Assembly (NCBI GenBank): GCA_965224245.1
Contig: OZ245046.1
Location: 3,264,001-3,328,000 of the forward strand
From: Candidatus Eiseniibacteriota bacterium
GTDB taxonomy: Bacteria > Eisenbacteria > RBG-16-71-46 > CAZAMP01
Reading direction: 5' to 3'
DNA: 64,000 nt
Position numbers and translations under genes: made by a program. The notes under the pieces were generated by a model. It made no database searches. It was not told the DNA's origin and was given only the letters and a program-made list of their open reading frames with translations. Each line of letters opens with the position of its first letter. Positions within the stretch are counted from its first letter, which is position 1. This document shows positions 5,498 to 38,039 of this stretch, piece by piece.

Positions 5498-8400
5498 CTA
5501 CGGCAGAACCACGAGCTTGCGGGTCGCGTGGTGCTCACCGGCCCGCAGGTCGTAGAAGTAGACGCCGCTCGGCACGCGCTTGCCGCCGCCGTCGCGACCG
5601 TCCCACGCGGCCGTGTGGCGGCCGGCGGTCACCTTCTCGTTCACGACGACGCGCACGAGACGTCCCGAGACGTCGAAGATCCCGAGGCGTACGTTCTCGT
5701 CGGACGGCAGGTCGAACCCGATGACCGTTCCCGCGCGGAGCGGGTTGGGCTTCGCACCGTGGACCGCGAACGTGCGCGGCCGCGTCGGGTCGACCGTCTC
5801 CACGGCCACCACCGAGCAGTCGACCGCGTCGCGAGCCCCGACCAGTCCGCATCCGGCGGGCGACTGGTCCGGCGCACACGGTGAGGTGAGCGCGATCCGG
5901 AAGTCGTCGGCGGCCACGTCACAGAACTCGGGGTCGGCCGAGAAGTCGTTCGGTCCGCCGGTACACCCCGCAGTGTCCTCGGTGTTGTTCCAGAGGTCGT
6001 TGCAGTCGAGCGTGACCGTGCCCCCGTCGCACCAGATTCCGCCCGCGCTCGGGGCCAGGCCCGACGCGACGATGTTGTTGAGCAACGAGACCGTGGCCGA
6101 GCCCGTGATCTCGATCGCGCCACCCGCCGTTCCCGCCTCGTTGTCGTGGAACGTGTTGCTCGTCACGTCGGCGTCCCCGGAATCGATCGAGATCGCGCCC
6201 CCCGACACCACGGCCTCGTTCGCGAAGAAGACCGAGCCGGTGATGTCGGCACCCAGGGGCTGATCCAGTCCGATGGCGCCCCCGCGGATCTGCGAGAAGC
6301 AGCTGTCGAACACGCAGGACTCCAGCGTCATGCGCGACTGCAGACCGTACACCGCTCCACCGGCATTCTGGGCCACGCACTCGCGAAACGTGACGTTGCG
6401 GATCGTGGGCGAGACGTTCTGGGCGAAGATGCCGCCGCCGTACCCGTTCGGGAAGCTACCGAACGAGATGCCCTGATAGATCGTCAGGTTCTCGATGTTC
6501 GCGTCGGCCTGGACCTCCATCGCGCGCTGGAACGAGGGCGCCTGCAGCGTGGTCAAGCCCGGACCCGAGCCGATCAGGAAGATGCGCTCGGAGATCGTCA
6601 CCTGCTCCTGGAACGTCCCCGGCCCCACGAACACCGTGTCGCAGAAGTTGGCCGCGTTCACGGCGGCCTGGATCGTCGCGTACTCACCGGGCACGTTCAG
6701 CGTGATGCCCACGCACGGCGGCTCGGGCGACGTGCCCGCGATGTGAAACGTCTGGGGTCCCTCCGGAAGCGCGGTCGCGCTGACCCTGGCCGTCCACAGC
6801 CCCGCCATCGGGGACGTGACGGTCACCTGCTCCATCGGATCGCGGTGGTTCGGACGTTGGACGGCATCAAGCGTGGGGATGCTGGGGGTCAGATCCCACG
6901 GGGAGTACTCGGTTCCGATCGGCGAGACGAGCACGAGGTCGAGGTCGTTGATGAGCGTCGTGAGCGCCCCCGGGCTCGCCGCCGGATCGTTCCAGGCGAT
7001 CGTGACCTGCGCGACCGCTGCGCCGGACGGCACGTCGAACGCGAACTCGGCCGTGTCGCTCGCGTCGTCCAGCGTGCCCTCGCCCCACGCACCGTCCAGG
7101 TACTGGTCGACGGCCGCGTGAACGTCGATCGCGCCGAAGCCGAACGAGTAGTCCGGTCCGACGTTTCCGAGATCGCGCGCCGTGTTGAACAGGAGCGCGC
7201 GCACCAGCGACACCTCGGGCAGGGTGCCGTGGTCGTCGAGATAGGCCCCCTGGACGAGCGCCACGCAGCCCGAGACGGCCGGCGTCGCCATGGACGTCCC
7301 GCAGAATGTGCCGTACGTGTCGCCGGCCTGCGTGGACGTGACGCCGCCGTCGCCGCCGCTCTGGCACCCGGGGCCGACCAGCTCGGGCTTCAGACGCCCG
7401 TCGTCCACCGGCCCCCAGCCCGAGAAGCTCGTCATCGAGTCGTTGTTGGAGTTGATCGCCCCCACCGTGATCGTGTTCTTCGACGCGGACGGCGGCGTGA
7501 TCGTGCCGTAGTCGGGGTTGCCGCAGTCGCTGTCCTGGCGCTCGTTGCCCGCGGAGTGCGCGACCAGGATGATGCCGCCCGCGGCGCCGTTGATGATGTC
7601 GTCGTACTCGGCACTCCCGAAGTCGTAGTCGCCGTAGGCGTCGCAGTTGCCGAGCTCCTCGGAGATCTGGCTGCTCCACGAGTTCTGCGAGATCGACGCT
7701 CCGTAGGTCGCGATCGCCAACGCATGCTCGTCGTACGTCACGTCCCAGTCGTAGCTCGCGAGACCGGCCTGGGGCGCCATTCCGGCCCACTGGAGCGCGG
7801 AGCCCCCCTCGCCCGAGCTGCCGGTGCCGTTGCCCGCCACCGTGCCGCCGACGTGCGTGGCGTGGAAGTCGGGCGTCGCACCGTCGCCGATGCTGAGTCG
7901 TGCCCCGAAGTCGACGTGGTCGGCCACCGCACCGCCGTCCCAGACCGCCACGGTGATCCCGTTGCCGGTCAGGCCGTACGGCGCGTCGTTGACGACGTCG
8001 GCTCCGGTGTTCGCGCGGCATCCGTCGTTGTCTCCGACCTTCGGTGGAGCGGTCTCGCGCACCCAGTAGACGCGGTCGTCCGCACCGATCGCCGCCAGCC
8101 CGGCCGCATCGGTCTGGATCTCGAACGCCCGCAGGAAGCCGGTCTCCTCCAGCACCGTCGCGCCGGCGGCCTCCAGAACCGATCGGGCGTCGGACAGCTC
8201 GACGTCCTCGAAGAAGCGCACGAACAGCCGCCAGTGCCCCTCGGGGGTGACGGCCCAGCCTCGCGGCCCGGCGTCCCGGAGACGAGGGTGCACGCGATCG
8301 TCGGTCAGGATCGGACCGGCCCAGCGCACGAGCAGGCCGGTGGTCGGGCGCGCGAACACGTCGCGCGGCACCGAGACCATCCACGTGTCCTCGGGCAGAT

Positions 8401-8950: not shown

Positions 8951-11116
8951 ATGACTCGCCGTGGCCATCGCGGCTGCTGTTCCGGACGCCCGCCGGTGCC
9001 GCTCGAGGCCCGCCCGGCCGCCATTCTCGCCTCCGTGCTCGCCCTCCTCTCGGTGGGCCTCGGGTGCGCCCGATCCCCGGATGCCCCGACGCTGGAATGG
9101 CTCCGGCGAGGAACCGCCTATGTGGTCGTGACCGACCCCGTCGAGCTCCGGATCAGCGTCGAGCCGACCCACGGGGGGGCCGACTACGCCTATCTCTACG
9201 GCCCCGACGGTCGCACGCTCGTGCGCCGCCGGCTGTCTCCCGACTACGCCGGCACCGTGGTCAGGCGGCTCACGACCCCCGGCGTCTACACGGTCGTCCC
9301 GAGCCCGTCGCATCGCATGCGTCTGCGGGCGGACGGAGCCCGACTCGTGTATCGGCCGGAGACCGAGTTCCCGTCGCTCCACCAGCGCGACGGCGGGGCC
9401 GGGTACACGTTCCGGGTTCCCGAGGGAACGGAACGGATGACGGTGGCGGCCACCAATCAGCACGACTGGTCGGGATCCGCCGCTCGCGTGCGGATCTTCG
9501 ATCCGGACGGTCGACTCGCGCACACCTTCGAGCTGGACGATCTCGACGAGGCGACGATCCTCGAGCGCGTCGGCGTCTCGGCCGAGCAGCTGGCGTTCTA
9601 CCGCGCCCAGGGCGACACCGCCGTCGTGCCGGAGTTCCGGCTCGTGATCGAGCGGTGGACCGCGACCGACCCCGCGCCCGGCTCCTGGCGGGTGGAGGCG
9701 GGAACGACGGGGCTGGAGGCCGACGACGTCGGGTTCTGGCTCGAGGGCATCGACAACCTGATCGCCCCGGTCGGCGAGTCCCCCGAGCTTCCGGGCTGGA
9801 CCGACGTGGACGTGAGTGCGACCGTGGATGCGGCCCGCGTCGTGGGCCCCACCGGCGACGTCGGCACGGTCTGGGGCTGGACGGTTCACGAGGCCGAGTC
9901 GGAGGCCGCGTATCGCGAGATGGGGTTGTCGGCCAGCAAGCACTTCTATCCGCAGATCGACATGGAGGCCATCAACGACGACGACGACCCGCGTCACATC
10001 GATCCGGCCGGGTTCGATTTCGCGCCGTACGTCTCGCGGCTGGACGCGTACGCCGATCAGCGCATCCCGCTCACGGCGCTGATGGCGATCACGCGCCCCA
10101 CCGCGTGGGCCACGAAGAACCTGGAGGAGATCGCCGAGTTCGCCGAGGCCGCGGTGTCCTACCACCAGATCGACCGCGACCTCTCGCCCGACGCGCTCTA
10201 CTGGCAGTTCCTGAACGAGCCCAACCACGACGTGCACGAACGCGACTACGTCCTCGCGTACCAGAGCGTGGGACGGCGCCTCGCCGAGCGGATCGAGGCC
10301 GGTGGCGTTCCCGTGCACTTCGGGGGGCCGGCCACCGGCAACGCGGCCGGGGACACGCGCGCCGTCCCGTGGTCGTGGATCGAGTCGCTTCTCCGCCATG
10401 CCGACGACGTCACGGACTTCGTCGTGTGGAATCAGTACCGGCTGCCCAGGCTCGAGGACACGTGGCGCTATCGTGCCCACGTGGCGCGCGCCGATTCGCT
10501 GATCCGCGCGCTCGACAGCGACGGCCAGCGCGAGGAGATCCTCATCGGCGCGACGAACCTGCGCGGCGGCATCGTGCTTCAGAACGAGCGTCAGGACGGA
10601 CCCTACTCGGCGCTGTGGTGGCCGTCGGTGCTGTGCCAGACGCTCGGCACCGGGCGTTGCCGGCTGATCAACTACTTCTTCCTGATCGATCACGGCGCCC
10701 GGCGAAAGGGTCTCCTTCACGGCGACTGGCGGCGAAAGCCGGTCGCGCACGCGACCGCGTTCGTGACGTCCCATCTGGGCACCCACGTGATCGGGGCCGA
10801 GATCGACCACGACGGACTGGACGTGCTCGCGACGCGCGGACCGGTCGGTCGCCGCGGCGACGCGGCGACGGCCGTCTCCGACGCCGACCCGTTACACGTG
10901 CTCGTGGTGAACCGGCTCGACCGTGCGGCGCGCTTGCGGCTTCTCGTGGCCGGCGCCCCCGCTGCCGCCCGCGTCGAGGCGAGCCTGTTCGTGACCGACA
11001 CCGGCGAGGTGCGCGCGCTCGACACGCGTTCGAACGCCGACGATGCCGGGTCCCGCTTCGAGGTCCGCGTGCCGCCGCGCACGCTGGCCGCGTGGCGCCT
11101 GCTGCCGGGAGGGTGA
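8951..11116 (+). CDS. Lipoprotein with probable clan GH-A (GH39-like) TIM-barrel glycoside hydrolase domain
   Basis: Lipobox GLGC; YWQFLNEPN (NEP acid/base-type motif) followed by FGGP; C-terminal 'VLVVNR' beta-sandwich; heads a sugar operon. Confidence 0.55.
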   Translation: MTRRGHRGCCSGRPPVPLEARPAAILASVLALLSVGLGCARSPDAPTLEWLRRGTAYVVVTDPVELRISVEPTHGGADYAYLYGPDGRTLVRRRLSPDYAGTVVRRLTTPGVYTVVPSPSHRMRLRADGARLVYRPETEFPSLHQRDGGAGYTFRVPEGTERMTVAATNQHDWSGSAARVRIFDPDGRLAHTFELDDLDEATILERVGVSAEQLAFYRAQGDTAVVPEFRLVIERWTATDPAPGSWRVEAGTTGLEADDVGFWLEGIDNLIAPVGESPELPGWTDVDVSATVDAARVVGPTGDVGTVWGWTVHEAESEAAYREMGLSASKHFYPQIDMEAINDDDDPRHIDPAGFDFAPYVSRLDAYADQRIPLTALMAITRPTAWATKNLEEIAEFAEAAVSYHQIDRDLSPDALYWQFLNEPNHDVHERDYVLAYQSVGRRLAERIEAGGVPVHFGGPATGNAAGDTRAVPWSWIESLLRHADDVTDFVVWNQYRLPRLEDTWRYRAHVARADSLIRALDSDGQREEILIGATNLRGGIVLQNERQDGPYSALWWPSVLCQTLGTGRCRLINYFFLIDHGARRKGLLHGDWRRKPVAHATAFVTSHLGTHVIGAEIDHDGLDVLATRGPVGRRGDAATAVSDADPLHVLVVNRLDRAARLRLLVAGAPAAARVEASLFVTDTGEVRALDTRSNADDAGSRFEVRVPPRTLAAWRLLPGG

Positions 11117-11120
11117 ACAG

Positions 11121-12056
11121 GTGGATATCCGCACCCCCGGTCTCCACGAGCTCGACGCGATCCTGGCCATGTTGACACGAGCCTACCGCGCCGCACGCGC
11201 CGACTTCCCGGACGATCCCCGCGTGCTCGGCGCCTACGGGGCCCACGATCCCGGCGGCGGCCCCGCGAACTGGGTCGTCGCGTTCGACGACGACCGCCCG
11301 CTGGCGGCGCTTCGGTTGTTCTTCCGGACGATCCACACGTCGATCGGTGATCTCGAGATCGGGGGCATCGGCAACGTGGGCACCGACCCGGACGCCGGCG
11401 GCCGCGGCCTCGGCTCGACCGTGATGCGCGCCGCACACGACCGGATTCTCGAGCGCGGCTGCCGTGCGGCGCTCCTCGTCACCGACATCCCCGACTTCTA
11501 CCGGCGTCTCGGCTACGAGACCGTGCGACAGCCGGAGCTCCGGGGTACCGTCGTCCCCGAGCGCGAGACCCCGGTCGCCGCCCGGCGCCTCCGGGCCCCG
11601 GTCGCCGACGAGGTCGACCGGTGGCACGCCCGGCTCGTGGCCGAGACGTCGGGACGGGTCGTACGCTCCGAGGCGCTCTGGACGCGATGGATCCTCGACT
11701 TCAAGGTGGCCGGGACGTCGCTCGACGCCGTCCACGGCGAGGGTGCGTACCTGATCGGCAGACCCGAGAATGAGGGCCGACACTACCGGGTCTTCGAGGC
11801 GGGCGGCGACCCGGCGGCCGTCCTCGCCCTCGTCAGGGCGCACGCGGGCCGCGCGGTGCTGTGGAAGATGCCCGACGACTCGGTGTGTCGTGCGGTGCTC
11901 GCCTCCGCGGACGCCGATGTGTCCACGCGCGAGCGAACGGGTATCATGGCCGCCGTCATGGACGGTGCCGCGGCCGTCGGAGACGGCGCGGCCGCCACGC
12001 ACGACCAGGTCGACGCGTCGCTGTTCTCGGGCTTCCTGGAGCTCGACGCGTTCTAG
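11121..12056 (+). CDS. GNAT N-acetyltransferase (Eis-like N-terminal domain)
   Basis: GGIGNVGTDPDAGGRGLGS (motif A) and DFYRRLGY; GTG start just after the previous stop. Confidence 0.85.
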   Translation: MDIRTPGLHELDAILAMLTRAYRAARADFPDDPRVLGAYGAHDPGGGPANWVVAFDDDRPLAALRLFFRTIHTSIGDLEIGGIGNVGTDPDAGGRGLGSTVMRAAHDRILERGCRAALLVTDIPDFYRRLGYETVRQPELRGTVVPERETPVAARRLRAPVADEVDRWHARLVAETSGRVVRSEALWTRWILDFKVAGTSLDAVHGEGAYLIGRPENEGRHYRVFEAGGDPAAVLALVRAHAGRAVLWKMPDDSVCRAVLASADADVSTRERTGIMAAVMDGAAAVGDGAAATHDQVDASLFSGFLELDAF

Positions 12057-27889: not shown

Positions 27890-28080
27890 TCGACAACTCC
27901 GCACACCGCTCCGCTCGACCCATCCGATCGGGAGCGCCGCCGTCGTCGACGGCGAGCCCGTCATCGTATTCGCGCCGTTCGTACCGACCAGCCGTCGCAC
28001 CGGCACGACTGGCCGTGCCCGATGTCGATTGACGCGACATCTCATCGTCTCGATGCGCGTCACCCAAAAGGAGGTTCGTA

Positions 28081-28389
28081 ATGCGGTCCCTCGTGTCCCC
28101 CTTCGCGCGGCTCGGCGCGCGAGGCTGCGCGATCGCCGTGGCGTTCGCGCTCGGCGTCTCGGCCACACAGGTGGCCGTGGCCATCCCAGAAGACCCGTAT
28201 CCGATGGTCACGATCTCGAGCGACTTCATCCCGATGGGCGACGACTGGCAGGAGGACTACATCTCGCACGAGACGACCTCCGACCCGACGGTGTCGTCCA
28301 CCGAACGATCGGCCGACACCGATCCGATCGCGGACGAACGTTCCGTGCTCCAGCTCATGCTCACCACGTTGCGTCTCTTCATCCGATAG
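28081..28389 (+). CDS. Small secreted acidic protein/propeptide 1 (102 aa)
   Basis: Strong SD (AAAGGAGG); Sec signal ending AVA; acidic Ser/Thr/Pro body with EDPY and GDDWQE; hydrophobic C-terminus ending LFIR. Confidence 0.8.
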   Translation: MRSLVSPFARLGARGCAIAVAFALGVSATQVAVAIPEDPYPMVTISSDFIPMGDDWQEDYISHETTSDPTVSSTERSADTDPIADERSVLQLMLTTLRLFIR

Positions 28390-28407
28390 CCAGGGAGCCG
28401 AAACGAC

Positions 28408-30669
28408 ATGTACGATTCATTCGAACATACGCACGTCGATGGCGGCGCCCCGGAGGAGGTCCGACTCGCACTGGCGTACCTGAACGTCGTCGGAAGCGAC
28501 GACACGCCGGCCTCCGATGATGCGACCGAGCACGACGACACGCCGGAGATCGACGAGGACGAGCTGATCCGACGCGCCCGCATCGCGATTCGCTGGCTCC
28601 ATCACCAGGGTCGGGTCGACGAGGCCCGACAGCGGCTCACGGGGCTGATCGCCCGGTGCTGTCCCGACGCGACCCGGTCCTGCCGGCTGGCCGCCACGCT
28701 GCACCGGTTGCTGGGCGTGACATACCGTCTGGATGGACGACCGATGCTGGCCGCCGACGAGCTGATGAAGGCGAAGGTCCTGTACGAGTTCGCGCACGAC
28801 CGCCACGGTGTCGCGATGTCGTTGAACGCGCTGGGAAGCCTCTACGGAAGCCTCTACCAGTGGACGATCGCCGAGGAGTGCTTCACCGCCGCACGCCAGC
28901 TCGGTCGCGAGATCGGCATGGTGTCGATTCAGCGGAAGGCCAGCCGGAACCTCGAGTTCGCCTACCTGCGCCAGGGGCGTCTCGTCGAGGTGAGTGCGCT
29001 CTGGCACGAGAGCCGCGCGCTGCCCCCGATGGACGCCGTCGACGATCCCTACCCGCTGTCTGGAGCGATCACGCTGGCGCGTTTGATGCGGACGCGCGGA
29101 TTCCCCGCCTTCGGGCGCCGGGTGGCCGAGCGCGCGCTCGAGGGGGCCGAGCAGGGCGGGTTTCGACGGACCGAGGCGTACGTGCTTCACGTGGTGGGGC
29201 AGTGCGTACTCGACATGGGGGACGTCGACCGCGCGATCGCGCTGTTCAAGCGCGAGCTCCAGCTCGGGCTCGACATGGCGCCCGTGTCCGACGTCGTCTC
29301 GGAGGCCTACCTGGGCCTGGCCCGCTCGTACGCGGCCCGTGGCGACACGACGCGGACCCGGCGCGCGATCGAGGAAGGGCTCCGCATCTCGGACGAGATC
29401 CAGGACGATCAGACCCGGGTGGGATTGCTCTCCGTCCGCGGCATGCTGGCGTTCAACGACGGTGACGTCGCCGCGGCCGATCGCGACCTCCGCGAGGCCC
29501 GCTCGATCGCCGCGCGGTGTGACTTCCAGCTCGACCTGGCGCTCTGTCTCGAGACCGAGGCGTTCCTGCGGCGCGAGGCCGGCGAGGCACCGCTGGCCGA
29601 CTCCCTGATGGCGGACGCCGCGTACGCCTATCGCCGCATCGGCGCTCCCCGGCTGGCTCGCCAGCTCGAACGAGGCCGACGCGCCCTCTCACGGGGCATC
29701 CCTCATCGCCGCCGCGTCGTCGCGGCCGATGCGCGAGCCGAGCGCTGGGAGGCGTTCGGACTGGTCACCCGGGACAAGACGTTCCTGGACGAGCTGGAGC
29801 GCACCGCCCTCATCGCCGAGACTCCGTTGCCGATCCTGATCTGCGGCGAGAGCGGCGTGGGCAAGGAGCTCGTGGCCGGGGCGATACACGAGCTGAGCGG
29901 CCGCCAGGGCGTCCTCGTCGACATCAACTGCCCGGCCATCCCCGAGACGATGCTCGAGAGCGAGCTGTTCGGTTGCCGGCGCGGGGCGTTCACCGGCGCC
30001 GAGGACCGGCCCGGGCTCGTGTCGTCCGCCGACGGCGGCACGCTGTTCCTGGACGAGATCGGCGACATGCCGCTGGGGCTCCAGTCGAAGCTCCTCAGGT
30101 TCCTCGAGACGTCGCGCTACCGCCGCGTCGGCGGCCGCACGCCGCATTCGGTGAACACCCGGCTGGTGAGTGCGACCAACTCGAACCTCGAGGACCGCGT
30201 CCGTAGCGGCGCCTTCCGGGACGATCTCTTTCACCGGATCGCCGGAGTGGTGGTCACGATCCCCGCACTCAGGGATCGACCGACGGACATCGATGTGTTG
30301 ACCGATCACTTCGTGCAGACCTCGGGCGGGAATCCCGCGGCGCTCTCGGCGTCCGTCCGGAGCGCGCTGCGCGGATACGCGTGGCCGGGCAACGTGCGCG
30401 AGCTGAAGCACGTGATCCAGCAGATGGTGTGGAGTGCGTCCGGTCCGGTGGAAATCGGTCTCGACCTCGTGCCCGAGCGCATCCGAACGCGGGTGTGCTC
30501 GCCCCCCTCCGATCCCCTCGATCATGAGACGCTCACGTCGACCTTGGTCGACACGCGCGGCAGTGTTGCCGAGTCCGCGCGTCGTCTCGGCCTGAGCCGC
30601 CAGCAGATCTACCGCCGGATCGAGGAGATGGGCCTCGATCTATCGGAGCTGCGGGGGGCCGGGTCCTAG
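28408..30669 (+). CDS. TPR + sigma54-interaction AAA+ + Fis-HTH transcriptional activator
   Basis: About 430 aa of helical repeats; [36 protein letters not shown] and [26 protein letters not shown]. Confidence 0.93.
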
Positions 30670-30890
30670 GGGCTCGGGTCATGCCCGCGGTCGCGGACGT
30701 CGCCCCCGGGCGGCGTCCGCGCCGCGGCATGGTCTCCCCGGATGCACCACGTCTTGACAGCGTTCCGGGCGCCTTCGAGAATCCTCCGCCGCGCCGGCAG
30801 CGGCCGCAGCACCGGCGGCGGCGCCACCCCGGCGTGCGGCTCCCGACGCCGACGCCACCGGAGAGCGCGCGACGCGCGCGAGGAGGAACC

Positions 30891-31433
30891 ATGCGGGACG
30901 CGGTCAACCGCCTCTGGCCCGAGCTGGAATGGATCACCGACGAGAAGCTCCGTGAGCAGGTCGCGCTGACCTGGCAGCGCGCCCTGGAGCGGAGTCCCCT
31001 CACACCCGAGGACCTGGAGCGCATCCCGTTCACACTCCTGGTGCCCGACTGCCCCGCGACCTTCATGGAGCACAAGCGCTGCGTCGTTCACGTGGCCCGC
31101 GACGCGGCGCGGGCCATGGAGACGTTCCTGGGGCGCGCGCTCCCCATCGACCACGACGTCGTGATCGCGGGCGCGATCCTCGCCGACGTCGGAAAGCTGC
31201 TCGAGTACGAGATGGTCGACGGAGAGGCCCGGCAGAGCACGAGAGGTCGCTACGTGCGGCACCCCTTCACCGGGGTCGCGCTGGCCATGGAGTGCGGCGT
31301 GCCGGACGCCGTCTGCCACATCATCGCCGCGCACGCGGCCGAAGGTGATCTCGTCGCGCGCACGACGGAGGCGTACGTCGTCCACCACGCGGACTTCATG
31401 ACGTTCCTGCCGTTCAAGAACCTGAAGCGGTAG
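30891..31433 (+). CDS. HD-domain (HDIG-type) metal-dependent phosphohydrolase
   Basis: FMEH...AGAILADVGKLLEY...RHPFTG...HHAD (the canonical HD reads AD); GAGGAGG SD. Confidence 0.85.
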   Translation: MRDAVNRLWPELEWITDEKLREQVALTWQRALERSPLTPEDLERIPFTLLVPDCPATFMEHKRCVVHVARDAARAMETFLGRALPIDHDVVIAGAILADVGKLLEYEMVDGEARQSTRGRYVRHPFTGVALAMECGVPDAVCHIIAAHAAEGDLVARTTEAYVVHHADFMTFLPFKNLKR

Positions 31434-31520
31434 CGATGTGCCTCCGCCCGACCCGATCGAGCCCGATCAGATGATCGCGCCGACCGGATGTCGCCCCGGT
31501 GAGGCGCGGTGGGCGTGGGC

Positions 31521-31559
31521 ACAACAAAGGAGGCCCGCGCGTCCGCACGCGCGAGCCTC
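31521..31559 (-). terminator. Intrinsic terminator downstream of yceI-like gene
   Basis: Minus strand: GAGGCTCGCGCGT-GCGG-ACGCGCGGGCCTC followed by CTTTGTTGT. Confidence 0.65.
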
Positions 31560-31594
31560 TGCCTCCGGGGTCTCTGCAGATCGTGCACGGGAGG

Positions 31595-32188
31595 CTAAGC
31601 GTCCTGCTTGTGGATCCCTTCGACGGCGATCGTGATCTCCACGTCGTCTCCGACCAGGAAGCCCCCTGCCTCGAGCGCCTTGTTCCAGGTGAGTCCGAAG
31701 TCCCTGCGATCGATCTTGGTCGACGCGGAGAACGCGACCTTCTGGTTGCCCCAGGGATCGACCGCGGCCCCGCTGAACGCCGCGTCCAGCGTGACGGCCT
31801 TCGTGACGCCGGCCATGGTCAGATCGCCGGTCAGCGTGAACTCTCCATCCCCGGTGACGTTGGCCCCGGTCGACTTGAAGGTCAACGTGGGGTGGCTCTC
31901 GACGTCGAAGAACTCTGGCGACCTGAGATGGTCGTCACGCTGGTCGTTGCCGGTCGTGATGCTGGCCACGCTCACCGTGACCTCGGCGGTCGTTTCGCCG
32001 AGCTTCTCCGGGTCCGCCGTGATCGTGCCCGAGAAATCCGTGAACGAGCCCTGCACGTTGCTGATCCCGAGGTGCCGGATCTTGAACGACATGACCGAGT
32101 GAGCCGTGTCGATCTCGTACGTATTGGCCGACACGACCGCCGGAGCCGTCGCCATCGATACCACCAGCGCCAGAATGACGTTCCTCAT
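31595..32188 (-). CDS. YceI family polyisoprenoid-binding protein
   Basis: Signal peptide; IDTAHS, RDDHLRSPEFFD and IDRRDFGL motifs. Confidence 0.95.
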   Translation of the reverse strand: MRNVILALVVSMATAPAVVSANTYEIDTAHSVMSFKIRHLGISNVQGSFTDFSGTITADPEKLGETTAEVTVSVASITTGNDQRDDHLRSPEFFDVESHPTLTFKSTGANVTGDGEFTLTGDLTMAGVTKAVTLDAAFSGAAVDPWGNQKVAFSASTKIDRRDFGLTWNKALEAGGFLVGDDVEITIAVEGIHKQDA

Positions 32189-32241
32189 CGGTTCCTCCCA
32201 CGCGCGCGACGCGGTCACGCCCGCGCGCACGTTTGCGGTGT

Positions 32242-32736
32242 TCAGGATGTTTCGTCCTCTGCCCCCGGCTCGCGCATCGCGAGCCGGATGTCCTCCAGGA
32301 GCGCAATCAGCGTCCTCAGTCGGTCAACCCCGATGCCCCGGAGCTGCTCCTCGTGGAAGGCGAGCAGCGGCCCGTGCAGCCGGTCGACGAGCGCCCGTCC
32401 CTCGGGGGTGATCCTCGCCGTCACGCACCGCCGGTCGTCGGCTCCGCGCTCGCGGCGGATCCAGCCGTGGCTCTCCAGTCGATCCAGGAGCCGCGTGACG
32501 TCGGGGCCGGGGCTCACCAGGCGCTCCCCGATCTCCCGACACGTCAGCCCCGTCCCGCCCGCCCCCCGCAGGATGCGGAGGATGTTGTAGAGGGGCATCG
32601 AGAGGTCGGCGGTCCGGAGGAAGCCCGCCGCCTGATGCGTCAGGAGGCCCGCCGTCCGGACGATGCTCAGGAATGCCTCCTGAGCCACCGACTCGAACGG
32701 CCGCGACTGCTTGAGCTCGTTTCTAAGCGGTGACAT
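32242..32736 (-). CDS. MarR family transcriptional regulator
   Basis: YNILRILRG, DVTRLLDRLE and DDRR...ITPEG winged-helix motifs. Confidence 0.93.
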   Translation of the reverse strand: MSPLRNELKQSRPFESVAQEAFLSIVRTAGLLTHQAAGFLRTADLSMPLYNILRILRGAGGTGLTCREIGERLVSPGPDVTRLLDRLESHGWIRRERGADDRRCVTARITPEGRALVDRLHGPLLAFHEEQLRGIGVDRLRTLIALLEDIRLAMREPGAEDETS

Positions 32737-32742
32737 GCGGAG

Positions 32743-32776
32743 AGATTATCTGTTTAAACAATCTTTGTCAAGACAA
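32743..32776 (-). promoter_or_regulatory. sigma70 promoter of marR-yceI with two overlapping palindromic operators
   Basis: Minus strand TTGACA-17 bp-TAATCT; palindromes TGTTTAAACA (32751-32760) and TTGTC-AA-GACAA (32765-32776). Confidence 0.75.
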
Positions 32777-32843
32777 CTTACGTGAAAACATTCAATGGTC
32801 GCCGAACTTCCTGTCAAGTCACTCAATATCTTTCAGTTACGGG

Positions 32844-34547
32844 TCAGGCGGGCACCCCGCGCGGGAGGTGAACGTCGAAGATCGCGCCGCCGTCCGGGCC
32901 GGAGCGCGCATCGATCCGGCCCCCGTGAGCCCGGACCAGCCCGTCCACCAGCGTCAGCCCCAGACCCAGGCCCTCGACGTTGGCCCGATCGTCGCCGCGC
33001 ACGAACGGCGCAAAGAGGCGCCGCCCCATCCGCACGGGAACGCCGGGCCCGTGGTCGACCACCGAGAGCCGGACGCCGCCCTGGCCGGCCGCCTCGGGCT
33101 CGACCACGACGTGGATCCGCCGGTCGCGAGAGCCCCGGGCGTACTTCTCCGCGTTGTCGAGGAGGTTCTGGAGGATGTGGAGGACCGCGTCGGCGTCGAA
33201 CGCGACCTCGGGGAGGTCCTCGGCGATCCGGACGTCCAGCGTGGCCCCGCGCGCCTCCAGCGCGGGCCGGACCCGCTCGACGTGCTCGGCCACCGCGGCG
33301 CCGAAGTCGCCGTCGGCCGCGGAGATGTCGAGCCCACCCCGCTCCAGGCGCGTGTACCCGAGCACGTTGGACACGACACGCCCGAGGCGCTCGGCCTCGG
33401 ATCGGATCTTCCCGGCATACTCCTCGGCTCGCCCCGGCTTGCCCAACCCGTCGGCCAGCATGTCCGCGTAGAGACGCATGCCCGCCAGCGGCGTCCGGAG
33501 CTCGTGGGCCGCCGAGGCGGCGAACTGCGCGCGCTCACGTCCGAGACGATCGGTCTGGAGCACGAGCCCCACCAGAATCGCGCCGGCCAGGAGCGCCGCC
33601 GCCGCGACGGCGGCGAAGGTCCGCCGGAAGCGCGTGACGAGCGCCCGGGCTTCCAGATCGGACGCCTGGAAGGCCTGGGCGGCATCGAGGGCCACGTGCC
33701 ACGACGCCCCGGCCAGCTCGAGCGGGGCACCGACCACCGTGTTCCCGGTGGGACGGGTCGCCACCAGATCGGCCGGGTAGTACACGTCCGAGAGGGACGC
33801 CCGCAGCTCCGCGACGTCGACGAGGAACCCCTGCACGACGTTCGACCCTCCCAGCTGCACGAACCGGACCGCGACCAGGGCATCGGCACCGTTCAGCGTC
33901 ACCGTCTGCCACTGGATGGGACACAGCGACACGAAGTCCTCCGTCGCCAGCGACATCGCGAGGTCGGGGGGGAGTCCGTCGGCCGGGTCGTCGAGTGAAC
34001 CGTCCTCGGGCGCCACGATCGGCTCGGACCACGACGCAACCCGCGTGCCGGACGTGCTCTCGCACAGCTCGACCAGGGAGGGACGGACGTTTGCGAGCGC
34101 GGCCGAGAGCCGCTCCTCGGCGGCCAGCCAGTCGATGGGCCCCACGTGATGCTGGAGGCTCCGTCCGTAGGAGAGCCGCGGCATCGAGACCCGGCCCGCG
34201 CCGTCGAACTGGAAGTAGGCGCGGATGAACGGGTCGGTCGGCCTCTGCGACAGCGGTGACGTGGTCGACGAGTGGCACGCGCAGTCGCTGGCCGGGTCGT
34301 GAAACGTCAGCGCGTAGTGGTACACCGGACGCGTCGCCTCGGCCTGGCGGATGGTCTCCAGCCGGCCTCCGATCCGCTCGGCCTCTCCCTCCGCCACCCG
34401 CTGCGCCTGGACCAGGCTCAGGCTCCGGATGCGATCGGTCTCGCGGGAGACGGCCGCGTTGCCGACCACGTACCAGGCCCCGAGCGGGGCGGCGATCGCC
34501 GTGAACGTGAGCGCCGATGCGAGCATGATCCGTTTCGAGAATGCCAT
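32844..34547 (-). CDS. Sensor histidine kinase
   Basis: Two TM segments; AHELRTPL (H-box), NLLDNAEKY, DHGPG and GLGLGL. Confidence 0.95.
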   Translation of the reverse strand: MAFSKRIMLASALTFTAIAAPLGAWYVVGNAAVSRETDRIRSLSLVQAQRVAEGEAERIGGRLETIRQAEATRPVYHYALTFHDPASDCACHSSTTSPLSQRPTDPFIRAYFQFDGAGRVSMPRLSYGRSLQHHVGPIDWLAAEERLSAALANVRPSLVELCESTSGTRVASWSEPIVAPEDGSLDDPADGLPPDLAMSLATEDFVSLCPIQWQTVTLNGADALVAVRFVQLGGSNVVQGFLVDVAELRASLSDVYYPADLVATRPTGNTVVGAPLELAGASWHVALDAAQAFQASDLEARALVTRFRRTFAAVAAAALLAGAILVGLVLQTDRLGRERAQFAASAAHELRTPLAGMRLYADMLADGLGKPGRAEEYAGKIRSEAERLGRVVSNVLGYTRLERGGLDISAADGDFGAAVAEHVERVRPALEARGATLDVRIAEDLPEVAFDADAVLHILQNLLDNAEKYARGSRDRRIHVVVEPEAAGQGGVRLSVVDHGPGVPVRMGRRLFAPFVRGDDRANVEGLGLGLTLVDGLVRAHGGRIDARSGPDGGAIFDVHLPRGVPA

Positions 34548-34550
34548 CGG

Positions 34551-35228
34551 CTAGGGCTCTCCCCAGGCGTACCCGACGCCCTTGACCGTCACGATCAGGC
34601 TCGGCGCCTTCGGATCCGGCTCCACCTTCTGCCGCAGGTTCGCGATCGTCATGTCGACCGTGCGCGTGTTGAGATTGCCGGGCGCGTTCCAGACCTTCTC
34701 GAGCAGCTCCGAGCGTGGGACCGCCCGCTTCCGGTTCGTGTGGAGCAGTCGGATGATCGACACCTCGCGGGGCGTGAGTTCGGTGACGCTCCCCGACCGG
34801 GACACCTCGCAGCGCCCCAGATCGATCGACCCGTCCGGGATCATCACGACCTCGGACTCGGCCGGGGCCCGGTTGCGCCGCGAGAACGCCTCCACGCGGG
34901 CCAATAGCTCCCTCGCGCCGAATGGCTTGGTCACGTAGTCGTCCGCGCCCACCCCGAGCCCGACCACCTTGTCGTCCTCGTCCCCACGTGCGGTCAGGAT
35001 CAGGATGAACAGGTCCGGCCGCTCGTCTCGCAGGCGCCGGCACACCTCGAGACCGTCCGTGCCCGGAAGCATCAAGTCCAGGAGCACCAGGTCGACGGAT
35101 CGATTCCGGCCTGCGAGGAGGGCCGCGTCTCCGTCCAGCGCGGACGTCACGGTGTGGCCGTCGCCCTCGAGGAGATCGACGAGCGCCGCGTTCAGCGCCG
35201 GCTCGTCCTCGACCACCAGAACGTGCAT
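34551..35228 (-). CDS. OmpR/PhoB family response regulator
   Basis: VVEDE, LLDLMLP, GADDYVTKPF, RTVD and TVKGVGY. Confidence 0.96.
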   Translation of the reverse strand: MHVLVVEDEPALNAALVDLLEGDGHTVTSALDGDAALLAGRNRSVDLVLLDLMLPGTDGLEVCRRLRDERPDLFILILTARGDEDDKVVGLGVGADDYVTKPFGARELLARVEAFSRRNRAPAESEVVMIPDGSIDLGRCEVSRSGSVTELTPREVSIIRLLHTNRKRAVPRSELLEKVWNAPGNLNTRTVDMTIANLRQKVEPDPKAPSLIVTVKGVGYAWGEP

Positions 35229-35619
35229 GACGGGACTCCTGCGGGATCGGGCCGGCCGGCTGCGCCTGCACGCGGCGTGACCGACCTCGGCGAACACATC
35301 TCTGCCGACACTATGTCACGAGCGTGGAGGCGGCGCGGTCAATTGCGCGTAAAAGCCCTCGCCGCTTGCCGCCACCCTCCGGCGGCGGCTATGTTCTCGG
35401 CGCCCGACACAGGACGGCCCTACACGGATGAACGGCCACGCCATGGGACGACGTTCGCGCGCCCGCCAACTCCTGCTCCGGCACGCCACGGCGAGCGACG
35501 GCACATCCGCCCCCCGTCCGCCCCCTCATTCGCTCTGCATCCCACGCCGCGCATCCGGGCCTTGCCGGCCCCCATCCAGACGACGCGATATCGACCCAAA
35601 CGATGATCGGAGATCCCCG

Positions 35620-35907
35620 ATGACGATCCTCACCCGCCTCGCCCGCACGGCCGTAACCCTCGCCCTGTCGGCCACGGTCTTCTCGATGACGCTGGCGCCA
35701 TCCGCGCAGGCGGACGTCACCTCCGACGGAGACCCGTGGGAGAACGAGCGACTCGGCGAGCCGGCCGACCCCCCGACCGACACCACGCTGACCGCGAGCG
35801 CGGGGACGACGAGCGACCTCGACGACGCCGGAGATCCCTGGGAGAACGAGCGACTCGCCGGAACGCTCATGGAGAGCACGGCCTGGTTGACTCTCGCGAT
35901 ACGCTGA
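35620..35907 (+). CDS. Small secreted acidic propeptide 2 (95 aa) with two GDPWENERL repeats
   Basis: GGAG SD; signal ending AQA; repeats at 35728-35754 and 35830-35856; hydrophobic C-terminus ending LAIR. Confidence 0.82.
   Translation: MTILTRLARTAVTLALSATVFSMTLAPSAQADVTSDGDPWENERLGEPADPPTDTTLTASAGTTSDLDDAGDPWENERLAGTLMESTAWLTLAIR
35728..35856 (+). repeat. Direct repeat of 27 bp encoding GDPWENERL (35728-35754, 35830-35856)
   Basis: The copies differ only at GAC CCG vs GAT CCC (synonymous). Confidence 0.95.
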
Positions 35908-35981
35908 TCCGAGGCCGGGGTCGCCGCGCCGTGCGGCGACTCCATCATCCCGTCCGCGCCGAGAAGCCGTGCCGGTCGATG

Positions 35982-38039
35982 TCACACACCGGGCCGCTCG
36001 GCTCGTGCCACACGGCTCGGTCCACGAAACGGCCACGGCAGCATCTCGGGAGAGATGCACCCCCCGCTCGACGCCACGTGGGCGAGCGCGCTGCACACGT
36101 CGCGAAGCTCACGAACGTTCCCGCGGCTCCACCCGTGCGCGACCAGACGATCCACCGTCGCCGGATCCAGGCGTGGAGCATCGGCCGCTTCGGGGAGCCG
36201 CTGCGAGAGGAACAGCAACGCCAGCGGCTCGATCTCCTCGGGTCGGTCACGCAACGCCGGCACCGTCACCACACGGCCGGAAAGCAGCTCGAAGAGCTCC
36301 GCATCGAAGGCTCCGCGCTCGATCAGCGGTCTCGGATCCTCGGTGGCGGTGCTGATCAGCCGGAGCGCGTTCTCGGGGTCGTCGTCGCCGCGCGATCGCA
36401 GGAACCGCACGAGCTCGCGCTGCATGCCCCGTGGCATGGACGTGACGTCCTCCAGGATCGCACTTCCGCCGTCGGCCATCGCGAAGTACCCCGACAACGT
36501 CCAGTCGTCGCCGACGTTTCCGGCGGCCGACAGATCCGGGAGCGTCTCGCAGGCGAGGTTCACGCACAGCCGGCCCCGGCGCCCGAGCTTGTGTACCGCC
36601 GCGGCGATCAGGCGCTTGCCCACGCCGGGCTCGCCGACGAGCATCGTGGGAATCTGATCACCGGCCGCCTCGACGAGCTGATCCAGCGTGGCCAGCATCC
36701 GTGGGCTGGATGCCCGAACGCCCATGCGTTCCCAGACCGCTCGCCGCGAGCGCGGCCGCGACAGCGCACGTTCACCCCGCTCCAGCCGGCGCAGGAGGCG
36801 CCCCAGCCCCAGTCGCCGATATCGCCGCGTCGCCCGTTCGAGGTTTCGCTCGCCGATGCGGGAGTGCCCGACGCTGGACCACAGGCGCGCCTGGTACTCG
36901 CGGGTGAGCGCCGCCTCGAACCGATAGCCCCGCCGATCCGCGATCGCGACCGCCTCGGCAAAGAGCTGCGCGGCGAGATCGCGCCGGCCGCGCTCGAACG
37001 CGATCACGCCCGACACGCGCAGCAGGGCGACGCGCTCGAAGTCGTCGTTCAGGGCGTGGGTGAGCCTGAGCCCCTCATGCGCATCGCGCTCGGCGTGCTC
37101 GAGCTCTCCCCGCGCGGCATGCGCCTCGGCGAGCCGCCGGTAGCACTCGAGAACGACATCCCCTTCCGGCGCGATCTCGAGCCCGATCCGAAGCGCCTCC
37201 TTGAAGTGAACGAGCGCCGGCTCCGGGTGTCCCAGATCGAGGAGGGCATCTCCGATGAACTCGTTCGCCAGCGCCTCGCCCCGCCGGAACTCGGTGGACC
37301 GGGAGCGGCGCAGCGCCTCGGCCGCGACCTTGCGGGCGTGGTGCGCCAGTCCGAGGTTGCGGTAGATCTGAGCCCGGACCAGCCACACGTTGGTCACGAA
37401 GTTGGCTCGCTGTGTGCCGTCGAGCTCGCGGGCCACCCGGTGGATGCGACGCAGCGCGTCCACGAACAGCCCCTGCTTGTGCTGGCAGATCGACAGATTC
37501 AGCCAGGCGGCCTGCGCGAGATCGGACTCGCCGGCCTCGCGTGCCCAGAGCTGTCCGACGTGGAACGCCCGTCGCGCCGTGCTCCAGTTCGACAGCATCG
37601 CGTTGGCGGTACCGATGTCGTTCTGCGTCTTGGAGAGCCCACGCGGATCGCGGGCGTCACCGAACAGCCGCAGCGCCTCCTTCAGCTCGTCGATCGCCTC
37701 GTGGGTGTGACCGATGCGGAGCAGGAACACGCCGATCCATCGCTGGAGATGGGCCAGATGCAGGACCTCGTCACACAGCGGCTCGGTCTGGCGCGCGATG
37801 CGCAGGAAGCGGAGTCCGCTCTCGAAGTTGCCCTCGCGATAGAACGCCGACGCGATCTCGTCCAGGACGGCGGGCGTCGGAACCGAGCCGCACACCAGCG
37901 CGGCATGCGCGTGGCTGAGCGCCGCGAAGCGTGGCGTGTCGGCCATGGCGTTCACGACCTGCCGGGTCGCCTCCAGCTCGCGGCTGACCGACTCGAGAAG
38001 CGCGGACAGTGGACGCGGTGGCTCTGCGTGCCACGTCAC
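35982..38039 (-). CDS. TPR + degenerate sigma54-type AAA+ protein (paralog of 28408-30669; no GAFTGA, no HTH)
   Basis: TPR region aligns with the paralog (FRRGEA...APEGDVVLECY vs FRRTEA...[11 protein letters not shown]); GEPGVGKR; ADGGSAILED; GNVREL. Start uncertain, ORF open to 38258. Confidence 0.85.
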   Translation of the reverse strand: MTWHAEPPRPLSALLESVSRELEATRQVVNAMADTPRFAALSHAHAALVCGSVPTPAVLDEIASAFYREGNFESGLRFLRIARQTEPLCDEVLHLAHLQRWIGVFLLRIGHTHEAIDELKEALRLFGDARDPRGLSKTQNDIGTANAMLSNWSTARRAFHVGQLWAREAGESDLAQAAWLNLSICQHKQGLFVDALRRIHRVARELDGTQRANFVTNVWLVRAQIYRNLGLAHHARKVAAEALRRSRSTEFRRGEALANEFIGDALLDLGHPEPALVHFKEALRIGLEIAPEGDVVLECYRRLAEAHAARGELEHAERDAHEGLRLTHALNDDFERVALLRVSGVIAFERGRRDLAAQLFAEAVAIADRRGYRFEAALTREYQARLWSSVGHSRIGERNLERATRRYRRLGLGRLLRRLERGERALSRPRSRRAVWERMGVRASSPRMLATLDQLVEAAGDQIPTMLVGEPGVGKRLIAAAVHKLGRRGRLCVNLACETLPDLSAAGNVGDDWTLSGYFAMADGGSAILEDVTSMPRGMQRELVRFLRSRGDDDPENALRLISTATEDPRPLIERGAFDAELFELLSGRVVTVPALRDRPEEIEPLALLFLSQRLPEAADAPRLDPATVDRLVAHGWSRGNVRELRDVCSALAHVASSGGCISPEMLPWPFRGPSRVARAERPGV

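Follow-up and report, generated by a model that had tools for sequence, protein, structure and literature searches.

A gene pair encoding a predicted exported small protein and a TPR-containing sigma-54 activator looks like an undescribed signal-and-sensor module

The 64-kb stretch of bacterial DNA analysed here (the window) carries two copies of a two-gene module. In each copy, a gene for a short protein with a predicted export signal lies beside a gene for a large regulator that combines tetratricopeptide repeats (TPRs) with a sigma-54-type AAA+ domain. The first-pass annotation of the window had singled out this arrangement as a candidate peptide-signalling system. The observation is confirmed and greatly generalised by comparison with related genomes, and from its sequence features the module looks like an undescribed signal-and-sensor pair. 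The pair is probably a two-gene sensory module and a hallmark of its phylum, which is probably Candidatus Eisenbacteria. All four open reading frames (ORFs) of the window were found where they had first been placed. They are referred to here as small1, reg1, small2 and reg2.

28070-28074, + strand: ribosome-binding site GGAGG of small1, 6 nucleotides before the ATG, read directly from the DNA.
28081-28389, + strand: small1, predicted exported small protein of 102 residues; ATG start, GC content at third codon positions (GC3) 0.88.
28408-30669, + strand: reg1, cytoplasmic TPR sigma-54 regulator of 753 residues, predicted with Pfam, NCBIfam and AlphaFold2.
35620-35907, + strand: small2, predicted exported small protein of 95 residues; ATG start, GGAG upstream, GC3 0.89.
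35982-38039, - strand: reg2, apparently crippled paralog of reg1, 685 residues; start set by the drop in GC3 beyond 38039.

The host genome measures 6.9 Mb, with 70% GC. In small1 the GC content by codon position is 0.60/0.50/0.88. A 5' extension of small2 to 35428 has a flat profile (0.70/0.70/0.70), and the ATG at 35620 is preferred for that reason. The longer frame of reg2, reaching 38258, has a GC3 of 0.68 in the added part versus 0.86 in the rest. The drop past 38039 and the flat GC ahead of small2 therefore make the coordinates listed above, which are those first annotated, the best gene models. Judged by GC3 and ribosome-binding sites, small1 and small2 look like real genes. The small1 stop and the reg1 start are 18 nucleotides apart, while small2 and reg2 are convergent, with 74 nucleotides between their stop codons.

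Both small proteins begin with a predicted Sec-type signal peptide. It comprises residues 1-34 in small1, with AVA ahead of the predicted cut before I35, and residues 1-31 in small2, with AQA ahead of the predicted cut before D32. Each has a basic n-region, an uncharged hydrophobic core and a small-x-small site. The criterion applied is a heuristic one (basic n-region, uncharged hydrophobic stretch of at least 10 residues, small-x-small), complemented by an N-terminal helix in the AlphaFold2 model, and on this basis the two exported ORFs, each beside a large TPR gene, stand as first described. An acidic middle region follows, with a net charge of -11 in one and -13 in the other. It contains GDDW in small1 (residues 53-56, nucleotides 28237-28248), whereas small2 has two GDPWENERL repeats, with GDPW at 35728-35739 and 35830-35841. 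Both chains close with a short hydrophobic tail ending in IR; the C-terminal helix of small1 covers residues 86-101 (28336-28383). The AlphaFold2 model of small1, built on a 32-row alignment, has helices at 7-31 and 86-101 and low-confidence coil in between. The shared architecture despite little identity that the first-pass annotation had noted is borne out by signal, acidic middle and tail, and by a single weak comparison (30% identity over 93 residues, E 0.002). A profile of the family matches small1 at E 5.8e-6 and finds small2 as its best match in the host genome at E 7.7e-7, both proteins being training rows. No Pfam or NCBIfam family was assigned to any of 32 small proteins searched, which gave three stray single matches at E 0.018 or above. 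The nearest ESM Atlas clusters to small1 and a typical family member are hypothetical proteins of Candidatus Eiseniibacteriota of about 110 residues (scores 0.87-0.89), and serve as leads only.

The regulators are paralogs, as had been claimed: they share 33% identity over 603 residues (E 2e-67), and all motif pairs quoted at first pass are present. Pfam detects TPR_12, TPR_2, Sigma54_activat (PF00158, 192.7 bits), AAA_lid_14 and HTH_8 in reg1. Its predicted layout is a TPR superhelix at about residues 50-430, a sigma-54 AAA+ domain at 453-615, a lid at 622-695 and a Fis-type helix-turn-helix (HTH) at 706-740. Walker A reads GESGVGK, Walker B LFLDEIG, and GAFTGA occupies 526-531. NCBIfam returns generic models of bacterial enhancer-binding proteins (bEBPs) alone, every one below its cut-off. 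Matches to reg2 consist of TPR repeats and a weak Sigma54_activat hit (49.9 bits), with no HTH. This protein keeps the TPR domain and Walker A (GEPGVGK), but its GAFTGA loop region is deleted or replaced, its Walker B carries ED instead of DE, and the chain stops directly after the lid. The loop is covered by 29 rows of the family alignment, and a GAFTGA-like sequence is present in all but reg2; two relatives have the variant GAYTDA. By all sequence criteria reg1 is a bona fide enhancer-binding protein and reg2 is not a functional sigma-54 activator. The claim that both modules are wired to sigma-54 thus holds by sequence for reg1, with its GAFTGA, Walker motifs and HTH_8, and falls for reg2, which without loop and HTH would be unable to contact sigma-54 or DNA. 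Since its TPR domain is kept and an intact small2 adjoins it, reg2 is most likely a ligand decoy or a modulator of reg1. The host has an rpoN gene (G000:C1:2094700-2095176).

The association between the two genes is strict. Loci were scored with a detection rule that requires a signal-peptide-like small ORF with a G-x-P-x motif, ending -200 to +250 nucleotides from the start of the long gene. On the host chromosome this rule is satisfied by 7 of 1,834 long genes, three of which are TPR activators. The class searched is the whole phylum in the collection used (206 genomes), and the search with the TPR part of reg1 also led to more distant TPR activators of about 800 and 1,030 residues. A co-oriented signal-peptide-like small ORF lies directly upstream at every one of the 33 evaluable TPR-activator loci that related genomes provided (32 of 32 without genome G083). 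These are distinct loci with at least about 350 nucleotides of upstream sequence; seven others are cut by contig ends, and one more is a truncated positive. Four loci, in which only the AAA+ part matched or the N-terminal region is short or unclear, were set aside, and none of them has such an ORF. An independent metagenome collection gave the same picture, with 69 of 69 evaluable loci positive (65 by the rule, four on inspection). They derive from 80 loci fetched with a six-row TPR alignment, 11 being too short upstream. The pairing of small ORF and TPR activator far exceeds chance, and the neighbouring small ORF proposed at first pass as a check on homologous regulators is present in both collections.

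The reverse search leads back to the same regulators. A profile of 32 small proteins has matches in 104 of the 206 genomes. At 28 of its 30 best loci a TPR-activator ORF starts -98 to +113 nucleotides downstream; of the other two, one is missed by the motif pattern but positive, and one is cut by a contig end. Loci outside the training set are likewise positive (9/9, or 8/8 without G083). Over all loci the gap between small gene and regulator runs from -98 to +115 nucleotides: 18 in the window, -4 in G001 and -11 at a third paralog in the host. The sole other genome of the same family holds one reg1 ortholog (46% identity), the start of which overlaps the stop of a 111-residue signal-peptide ORF carrying GDPD. 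The small and regulator genes have stayed together through all sampled duplications and speciations. A broad TPR-domain profile reaches 205 of 206 genomes at E 1e-25 or better, which gives no more than an upper limit for the activator family, since the host has other large TPR proteins with such scores.

Five modules with unlike tails are present in the host genome. Besides the two in the window, these are:

G000:C1:4951915-4954422 (L021 4915-7423): third module, of the 750-residue type (four members known so far); small ORF with GEPW, overlapping the regulator start by 11 nucleotides.
G000:C1:2409077-2413013 (L022 2078-6014): fourth module, from a local profile search.
G000:C1:3028069-3031543 (L194 570-4044): fifth module, from a local profile search.

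The last two encode TPR sigma-54 activators of about 1,020-1,030 residues, each after a GDPD- or GEPD-type signal-peptide small ORF, and one of them lies outside every training set. Other searches were less productive. A word-indexed protein search with reg1 residues 60-450 returned the query itself alone. A scan of genome contigs with four close TPR domains found one family relative and a weak Paenibacillus TPR and nothing else, and the same scan of metagenome contigs gave no matches. As separate observations, more than 50 frames of the host genome match the activator TPR profile at E <1e-10, most of them proteins of 900-1,400 residues (for example G000:C1 54588-57419, 57522-60311 and 294045-298211). 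A Cys-rich 83-residue signal-peptide ORF with DDDWQ (L021 2789-3040; G000:C1:4949788-4950039) lies on the opposite strand 2 kb upstream of the third module, and its likeness to the GDDWQ of small1 may be due to chance.

The enlarged set defines the small-protein family better than the two window copies could. Ninety-four unique small proteins were collected, the motif being part of the detection rule for the metagenome rows. GDPD occurs in 80, GEPD in two, GDPW in one (small2), GEPW in one and looser forms in ten, including the GDDW of small1. Proline follows at +2 in 76 of 84. Across this collection the family motif is GDPDxP; GD[PD]W, the form given in the first-pass annotation, covers local divergent variants in the window. 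The median distance of the motif is 57 residues to the N-terminus and 55 to the C-terminus. Tryptophan occurs within the last 22 residues in 85 of 94 proteins, and at least two Arg or Lys in 90 of 94; 42 chains end in Phe and 21 in Arg. Of 32 proteins compared for charge, 26 have a net negative middle and 25 a net positive tail. Tails are mostly net-positive, Trp- and Arg-rich, and placed behind an acidic pro-region. Close groups conserve the GDPDxP block and the tail but not the linker, which drifts, and tails from different groups are unlike each other. When 1.84 billion representative proteins were searched with a profile, 88 small proteins reached E 0.001 or better, all of 84-169 residues, 81 with G[DE]PD and 85 with Trp in the last 22 residues. 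PEP-CTERM-type sorting was weighed but set aside, given a motif 18-71 residues away from the C-terminus and a tail that is no transmembrane segment. Thirty-one of the 94 proteins end in RF, and many tails read aromatic-x-Phe, where the window copies end in IR; such tails are reminiscent of the C-terminal signatures that outer-membrane assembly factors and PDZ proteases recognise.

The regulator offers a plausible place for a ligand. AlphaFold2 models residues 1-440 of reg1 as a superhelix of about ten helix pairs, with a predicted local distance difference test score (pLDDT) of 88.9 and a predicted template modelling score (pTM) of 0.87. N181, R254, D295 and E299 are invariant residues of the TPR domain. 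Most PDB structures close to the TPR model are TPRs that bind peptides. The best Foldseek matches are the LGN/Pins TPRs with long partner peptides, consensus TPR superhelices and O-GlcNAc transferase. Further matches include Rap proteins with pheromones (8rtc, 4gyo, 8rsv) at 11-13% identity, and MalT domain III (PDB 1hz4) gives the best template modelling scores (TM-scores), 0.63 and 0.74. The modelled fold fits a scaffold that holds a peptide or other ligand, without telling models of its function apart. A prediction of the complex between the reg1 TPR part (55-450) and mature small1 (36-102), with 32-row alignments for each, scored 0.00 and counts neither way. Similarity between tails correlates with identity between the paired TPR domains (Spearman 0.22, reached by 1 of 500 permutations) and shows no such relation to the paired AAA+ domains (Spearman -0.03). 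That the tail appears to track the TPR domain and not the AAA+ domain lends weak but specific support to co-diversification.

The reading ranked first, which is put forward tentatively, is a loop in which the exported small protein returns as a peptide to its own regulator. It would proceed in five steps. (i) The small protein would serve as the cognate input of the adjacent TPR sensor. (ii) It would be exported via Sec and then cut outside the cytoplasm. (iii) A fragment carrying the variable C-terminal tail would re-enter the cytoplasm. (iv) The returned fragment would sit in the TPR groove and switch the assembly or the ATPase activity of the AAA+ ring. (v) Sigma-54 promoters elsewhere would then be turned on or off. 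Direct contact between the small protein and the regulator is what we infer here. The returning-peptide loop is placed first because of three features: the multiplicity of modules with unlike tails, the co-variation of tail and TPR domain, and the conserved motif in the exported part. Insulated signal-receptor pairs would predict all three. The presence of rpoN and of four Opp/Dpp-type binding-protein genes in the host also speaks for the loop. More speculative is a wider picture in which a double-membrane phylum maintains mutually insulated pairs of exported peptide and TPR receptor, two to seven per genome, to drive sigma-54 AAA+ motors. Cytoplasmic sensing of peptide pheromones, of the Gram-positive kind, would then have evolved independently and been coupled to enhancer-dependent transcription, and crippled copies such as reg2 would act as decoys. 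Because the module is ubiquitous and multi-copy in the phylum, it is probably central to state sensing in this widespread, uncultured group of soil bacteria.

Several points weigh against the returning-peptide loop. A physical link between the two proteins is not demonstrated by any of the analyses. The correlation of tail and TPR domain is modest, and the relatedness of rows is not fully controlled in it. The host has twelve Omp85-family matches and so an outer membrane; in a double-membrane cell, a peptide passing from cell to cell would have two membranes to cross on the way out and two on the way in. Comparison of 19 neighbourhoods turned up no peptidase or importer gene linked to the module, and the four Opp/Dpp-type binding-protein genes (SBP_bac_5) of the host lie elsewhere. 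The conserved tail measures 15-20 residues, while pheromones of the RRNPP families have 5-10. The small protein of the third module has a signal peptide and lacks the hydrophobic tail that is present in all other members. The helical hydrophobic moment of the tails is 0.45, not higher than the 0.42 of the middle regions, and the tail as an amphipathic helix is not borne out. Finally, an upstream and closely coupled small gene, 18 nucleotides away here and overlapping in two relatives, is more typical of partners bound during synthesis.

One alternative dispenses with contact altogether. The small protein would have an envelope or extracellular role of its own, for instance as a constitutive operon mate or as part of an indirect feedback loop. 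This is rather unlikely. It would account well for the lack of demonstrated binding and for the lack of any known family among the small proteins (Pfam, NCBIfam), and the net-positive Trp/Arg-rich tail behind an acidic pro-region would suit a membrane-active peptide. The promoter scans point the same way. No sigma-54 consensus at 9 of 12 positions or better lies upstream of small1, and the one 9-of-12 site, 160 nucleotides before small2, is within the chance rate of 28 per 64 kb. A sigma-54 promoter precedes the operon at 0 of 28 related loci, and the control strand shows one at 2 of 28. The operon therefore does not activate itself through sigma-54, and the small gene is not a target of its regulator. 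An unconnected role sits poorly, however, with a linkage that has remained strict across the phylum despite repeated duplication and changing neighbours, with a tail that co-varies specifically with the TPR domain, and with the retention of small2 next to reg2, in which the TPR domain survives and the output domains are lost.

An export-coupled partner switch is a serious rival, though an unlikely one. Here the newly made small protein would bind the TPR domain in the cytoplasm and Sec export would remove it, so that the regulator would read whether, or how well, its partner is exported. Neither an importer nor a protease would be needed, and none is linked. Close coupling or overlap of the genes (18, -4 and -11 nucleotides) fits partners that are made together; a signal peptide is present in every case by the heuristic; and LGN and Pins hold peptides tens of residues long in an inner channel, with room for the GDPDxP block and the tail. 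Were all modules to read general Sec capacity, however, the presence of five in one genome, with tails unlike each other, would be redundant. A purely cytoplasmic ligand has no obvious need of a conserved motif within a long, low-complexity exported region, and small2 is not co-transcribed with reg2. Least probable by far is a cis-acting leader of the SecM/MifM/VemP kind, in which ribosome stalling at the C-terminus would control translation of the regulator: a signal peptide and a conserved C-terminal segment directly upstream reproduce the layout of known monitoring substrates, and the reg1 ribosome-binding site falls inside the footprint of a ribosome terminating on small1, but arrest motifs are sequence-specific whereas the tails differ widely between groups, the RNA at the small1-reg1 junction is no more stably folded than shuffled sequence (z +1.14), gaps vary from -98 to +115 nucleotides, small2 is convergent with reg2, and the downstream gene is not a secretion component.

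The genomic setting of the module varies between types and lineages. In the main 820-residue group it often lies directly downstream of what we take to be the end of a cysteinyl-tRNA synthetase-like gene (L126, L162, L163, L025). Across the 19 neighbourhoods compared, only the long TPR-GAF type keeps its neighbours: an NtrC-type regulator, a histidine kinase, RlmN-like and Ppx/GppA genes and an uncharacterised gene of 300 residues. These look like lineage synteny and not like parts of the module. Downstream of the long TPR-GAF activators, about 200-300 nucleotides past the stop, lie co-oriented sigma-54-like sites matching 10-11 of 12 positions, at 5 of 5 loci from other genomes and at one of two in the host. 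They are as follows:

L062: sigma-54-like site at 11007.
L068: sigma-54-like sites at 11292 and 11820.
L058: sigma-54-like site at 11660.
L063: sigma-54-like site at 6442.
L064: sigma-54-like site at 6683.
L022: sigma-54-like site at 1844.

A conserved uncharacterised gene of about 300 residues often follows these sites. Near reg1 the best such site matches 8 of 12 positions (30670-30685, directly past the reg1 stop), within chance expectation. This site lies about 205 nucleotides before the probable ATG (30892) of an uncharacterised gene and resembles that at L064 6683. Between the two modules of the window, positions 31595-35297 carry genes for a YceI-like protein, a MarR regulator, a histidine kinase and an OmpR-type response regulator. 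The last of these is divergent from small2, and none has a visible link to the modules.

Among known systems, reg1 is comparable with the bEBPs that carry N-terminal sensors. NifA and NorR sense through GAF domains, DmpR and XylR through V4R domains, and PspF is held in trans by PspA. With these reg1 shares the AAA+ domain, GAFTGA, Walker A and B, the lid and HTH_8, and rpoN is present in the genome. That an N-terminal domain or a partner protein controls the AAA+ ring is an established pattern for such proteins in the parts of the literature available. The module departs from them in that the sensor of reg1 is a 10-repeat TPR superhelix, and in that reg2 lacks the defining loop and the HTH. 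Within the text accessible in the literature searched, no enhancer-binding protein with a TPR sensor, nor one with a dedicated exported partner, is described. Three ways of switching a sigma-54 activator are known: phosphorylation, a small-molecule sensor domain and a partner protein. A further class of input would be a TPR sensor whose dedicated partner is genetically encoded and exported. MalT offers a parallel in architecture, with a TPR-like ligand sensor (domain III) on an ATPase-driven activator, but it differs in having a STAND ATPase and a LuxR-type HTH, in sensing maltotriose and in having no exported peptide partner.

Two groups of export-linked regulators resemble the module in part. 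In SecM, MifM and VemP, too, a small ORF immediately ahead of the regulated gene encodes an N-terminal export signal and a C-terminal segment that is functional. In the module the downstream gene encodes a transcription activator and not a Sec/YidC component, the tails are unlike between groups, and one window copy is convergent; it does not belong with the secretion monitors. In type III secretion, the TPR chaperones IpgC and SicA co-activate MxiE and InvF after their cargo has left, and ExsE and FlgM are secreted anti-regulators. The likeness lies in a TPR module that binds an export-bound protein, the free or bound state of which sets transcription. Those systems differ in using type III secretion, a separate chaperone and AraC-type activator, and effector-sized cargo, whereas in the module one protein combines TPR domain and activator, and the partner has a Sec signal peptide. 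Should the partner act before export, the module would parallel the type III chaperone switches, with Sec in place of type III secretion.

In logic the module resembles the RRNPP(A) peptide quorum-sensing systems of Bacillota and their phages (Rap-Phr, NprR-NprX, PlcR-PapR, AimR-AimP, Rgg-SHP), with which the first-pass annotation had compared the module. There too a cytoplasmic TPR-type receptor is encoded beside a gene for an exported propeptide, the export being a prediction here, and a genome holds several divergent pairs. Variation in the C-terminal part of the small protein appears to follow the receptor domain, and Rap structures are among the Foldseek matches to the reg1 model. The differences are equally clear. 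RRNPP outputs are an N-terminal HTH or a phosphatase; that of the module is a predicted C-terminal sigma-54 AAA+ domain with a Fis HTH. RRNPP propeptide genes usually lie downstream of the receptor gene, whereas the small gene of the module is upstream and closely coupled. The small protein has about 100 residues, with a GDPDxP block and a tail of 15-20 residues, and the host belongs to a double-membrane phylum. Matches of the receptor to Pfam and NCBIfam included no Rap, NprR, PlcR, PrgX, AimR or Rgg family. The proposed analogy thus stands on adjacency, TPR superhelix, tail-TPR tracking and multiplicity, and gives way on family models, gene order and a linked peptidase or importer. A partly supported statement would be that the module is RRNPP-like by analogy of logic and not by family membership, departing in receptor homology, output domain and taxon. 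About 170 natural pairs have now been collected, so that purified domains and synthetic peptides can be used to address the question, with no need for culturing. Passages of one source (PMC10075063) describe peptide-based quorum sensing of the RRNPP kind for Bacillota. If the partner of the TPR sensor is a returning peptide, cytoplasmic peptide-receptor signalling would extend beyond that phylum to a double-membrane lineage.

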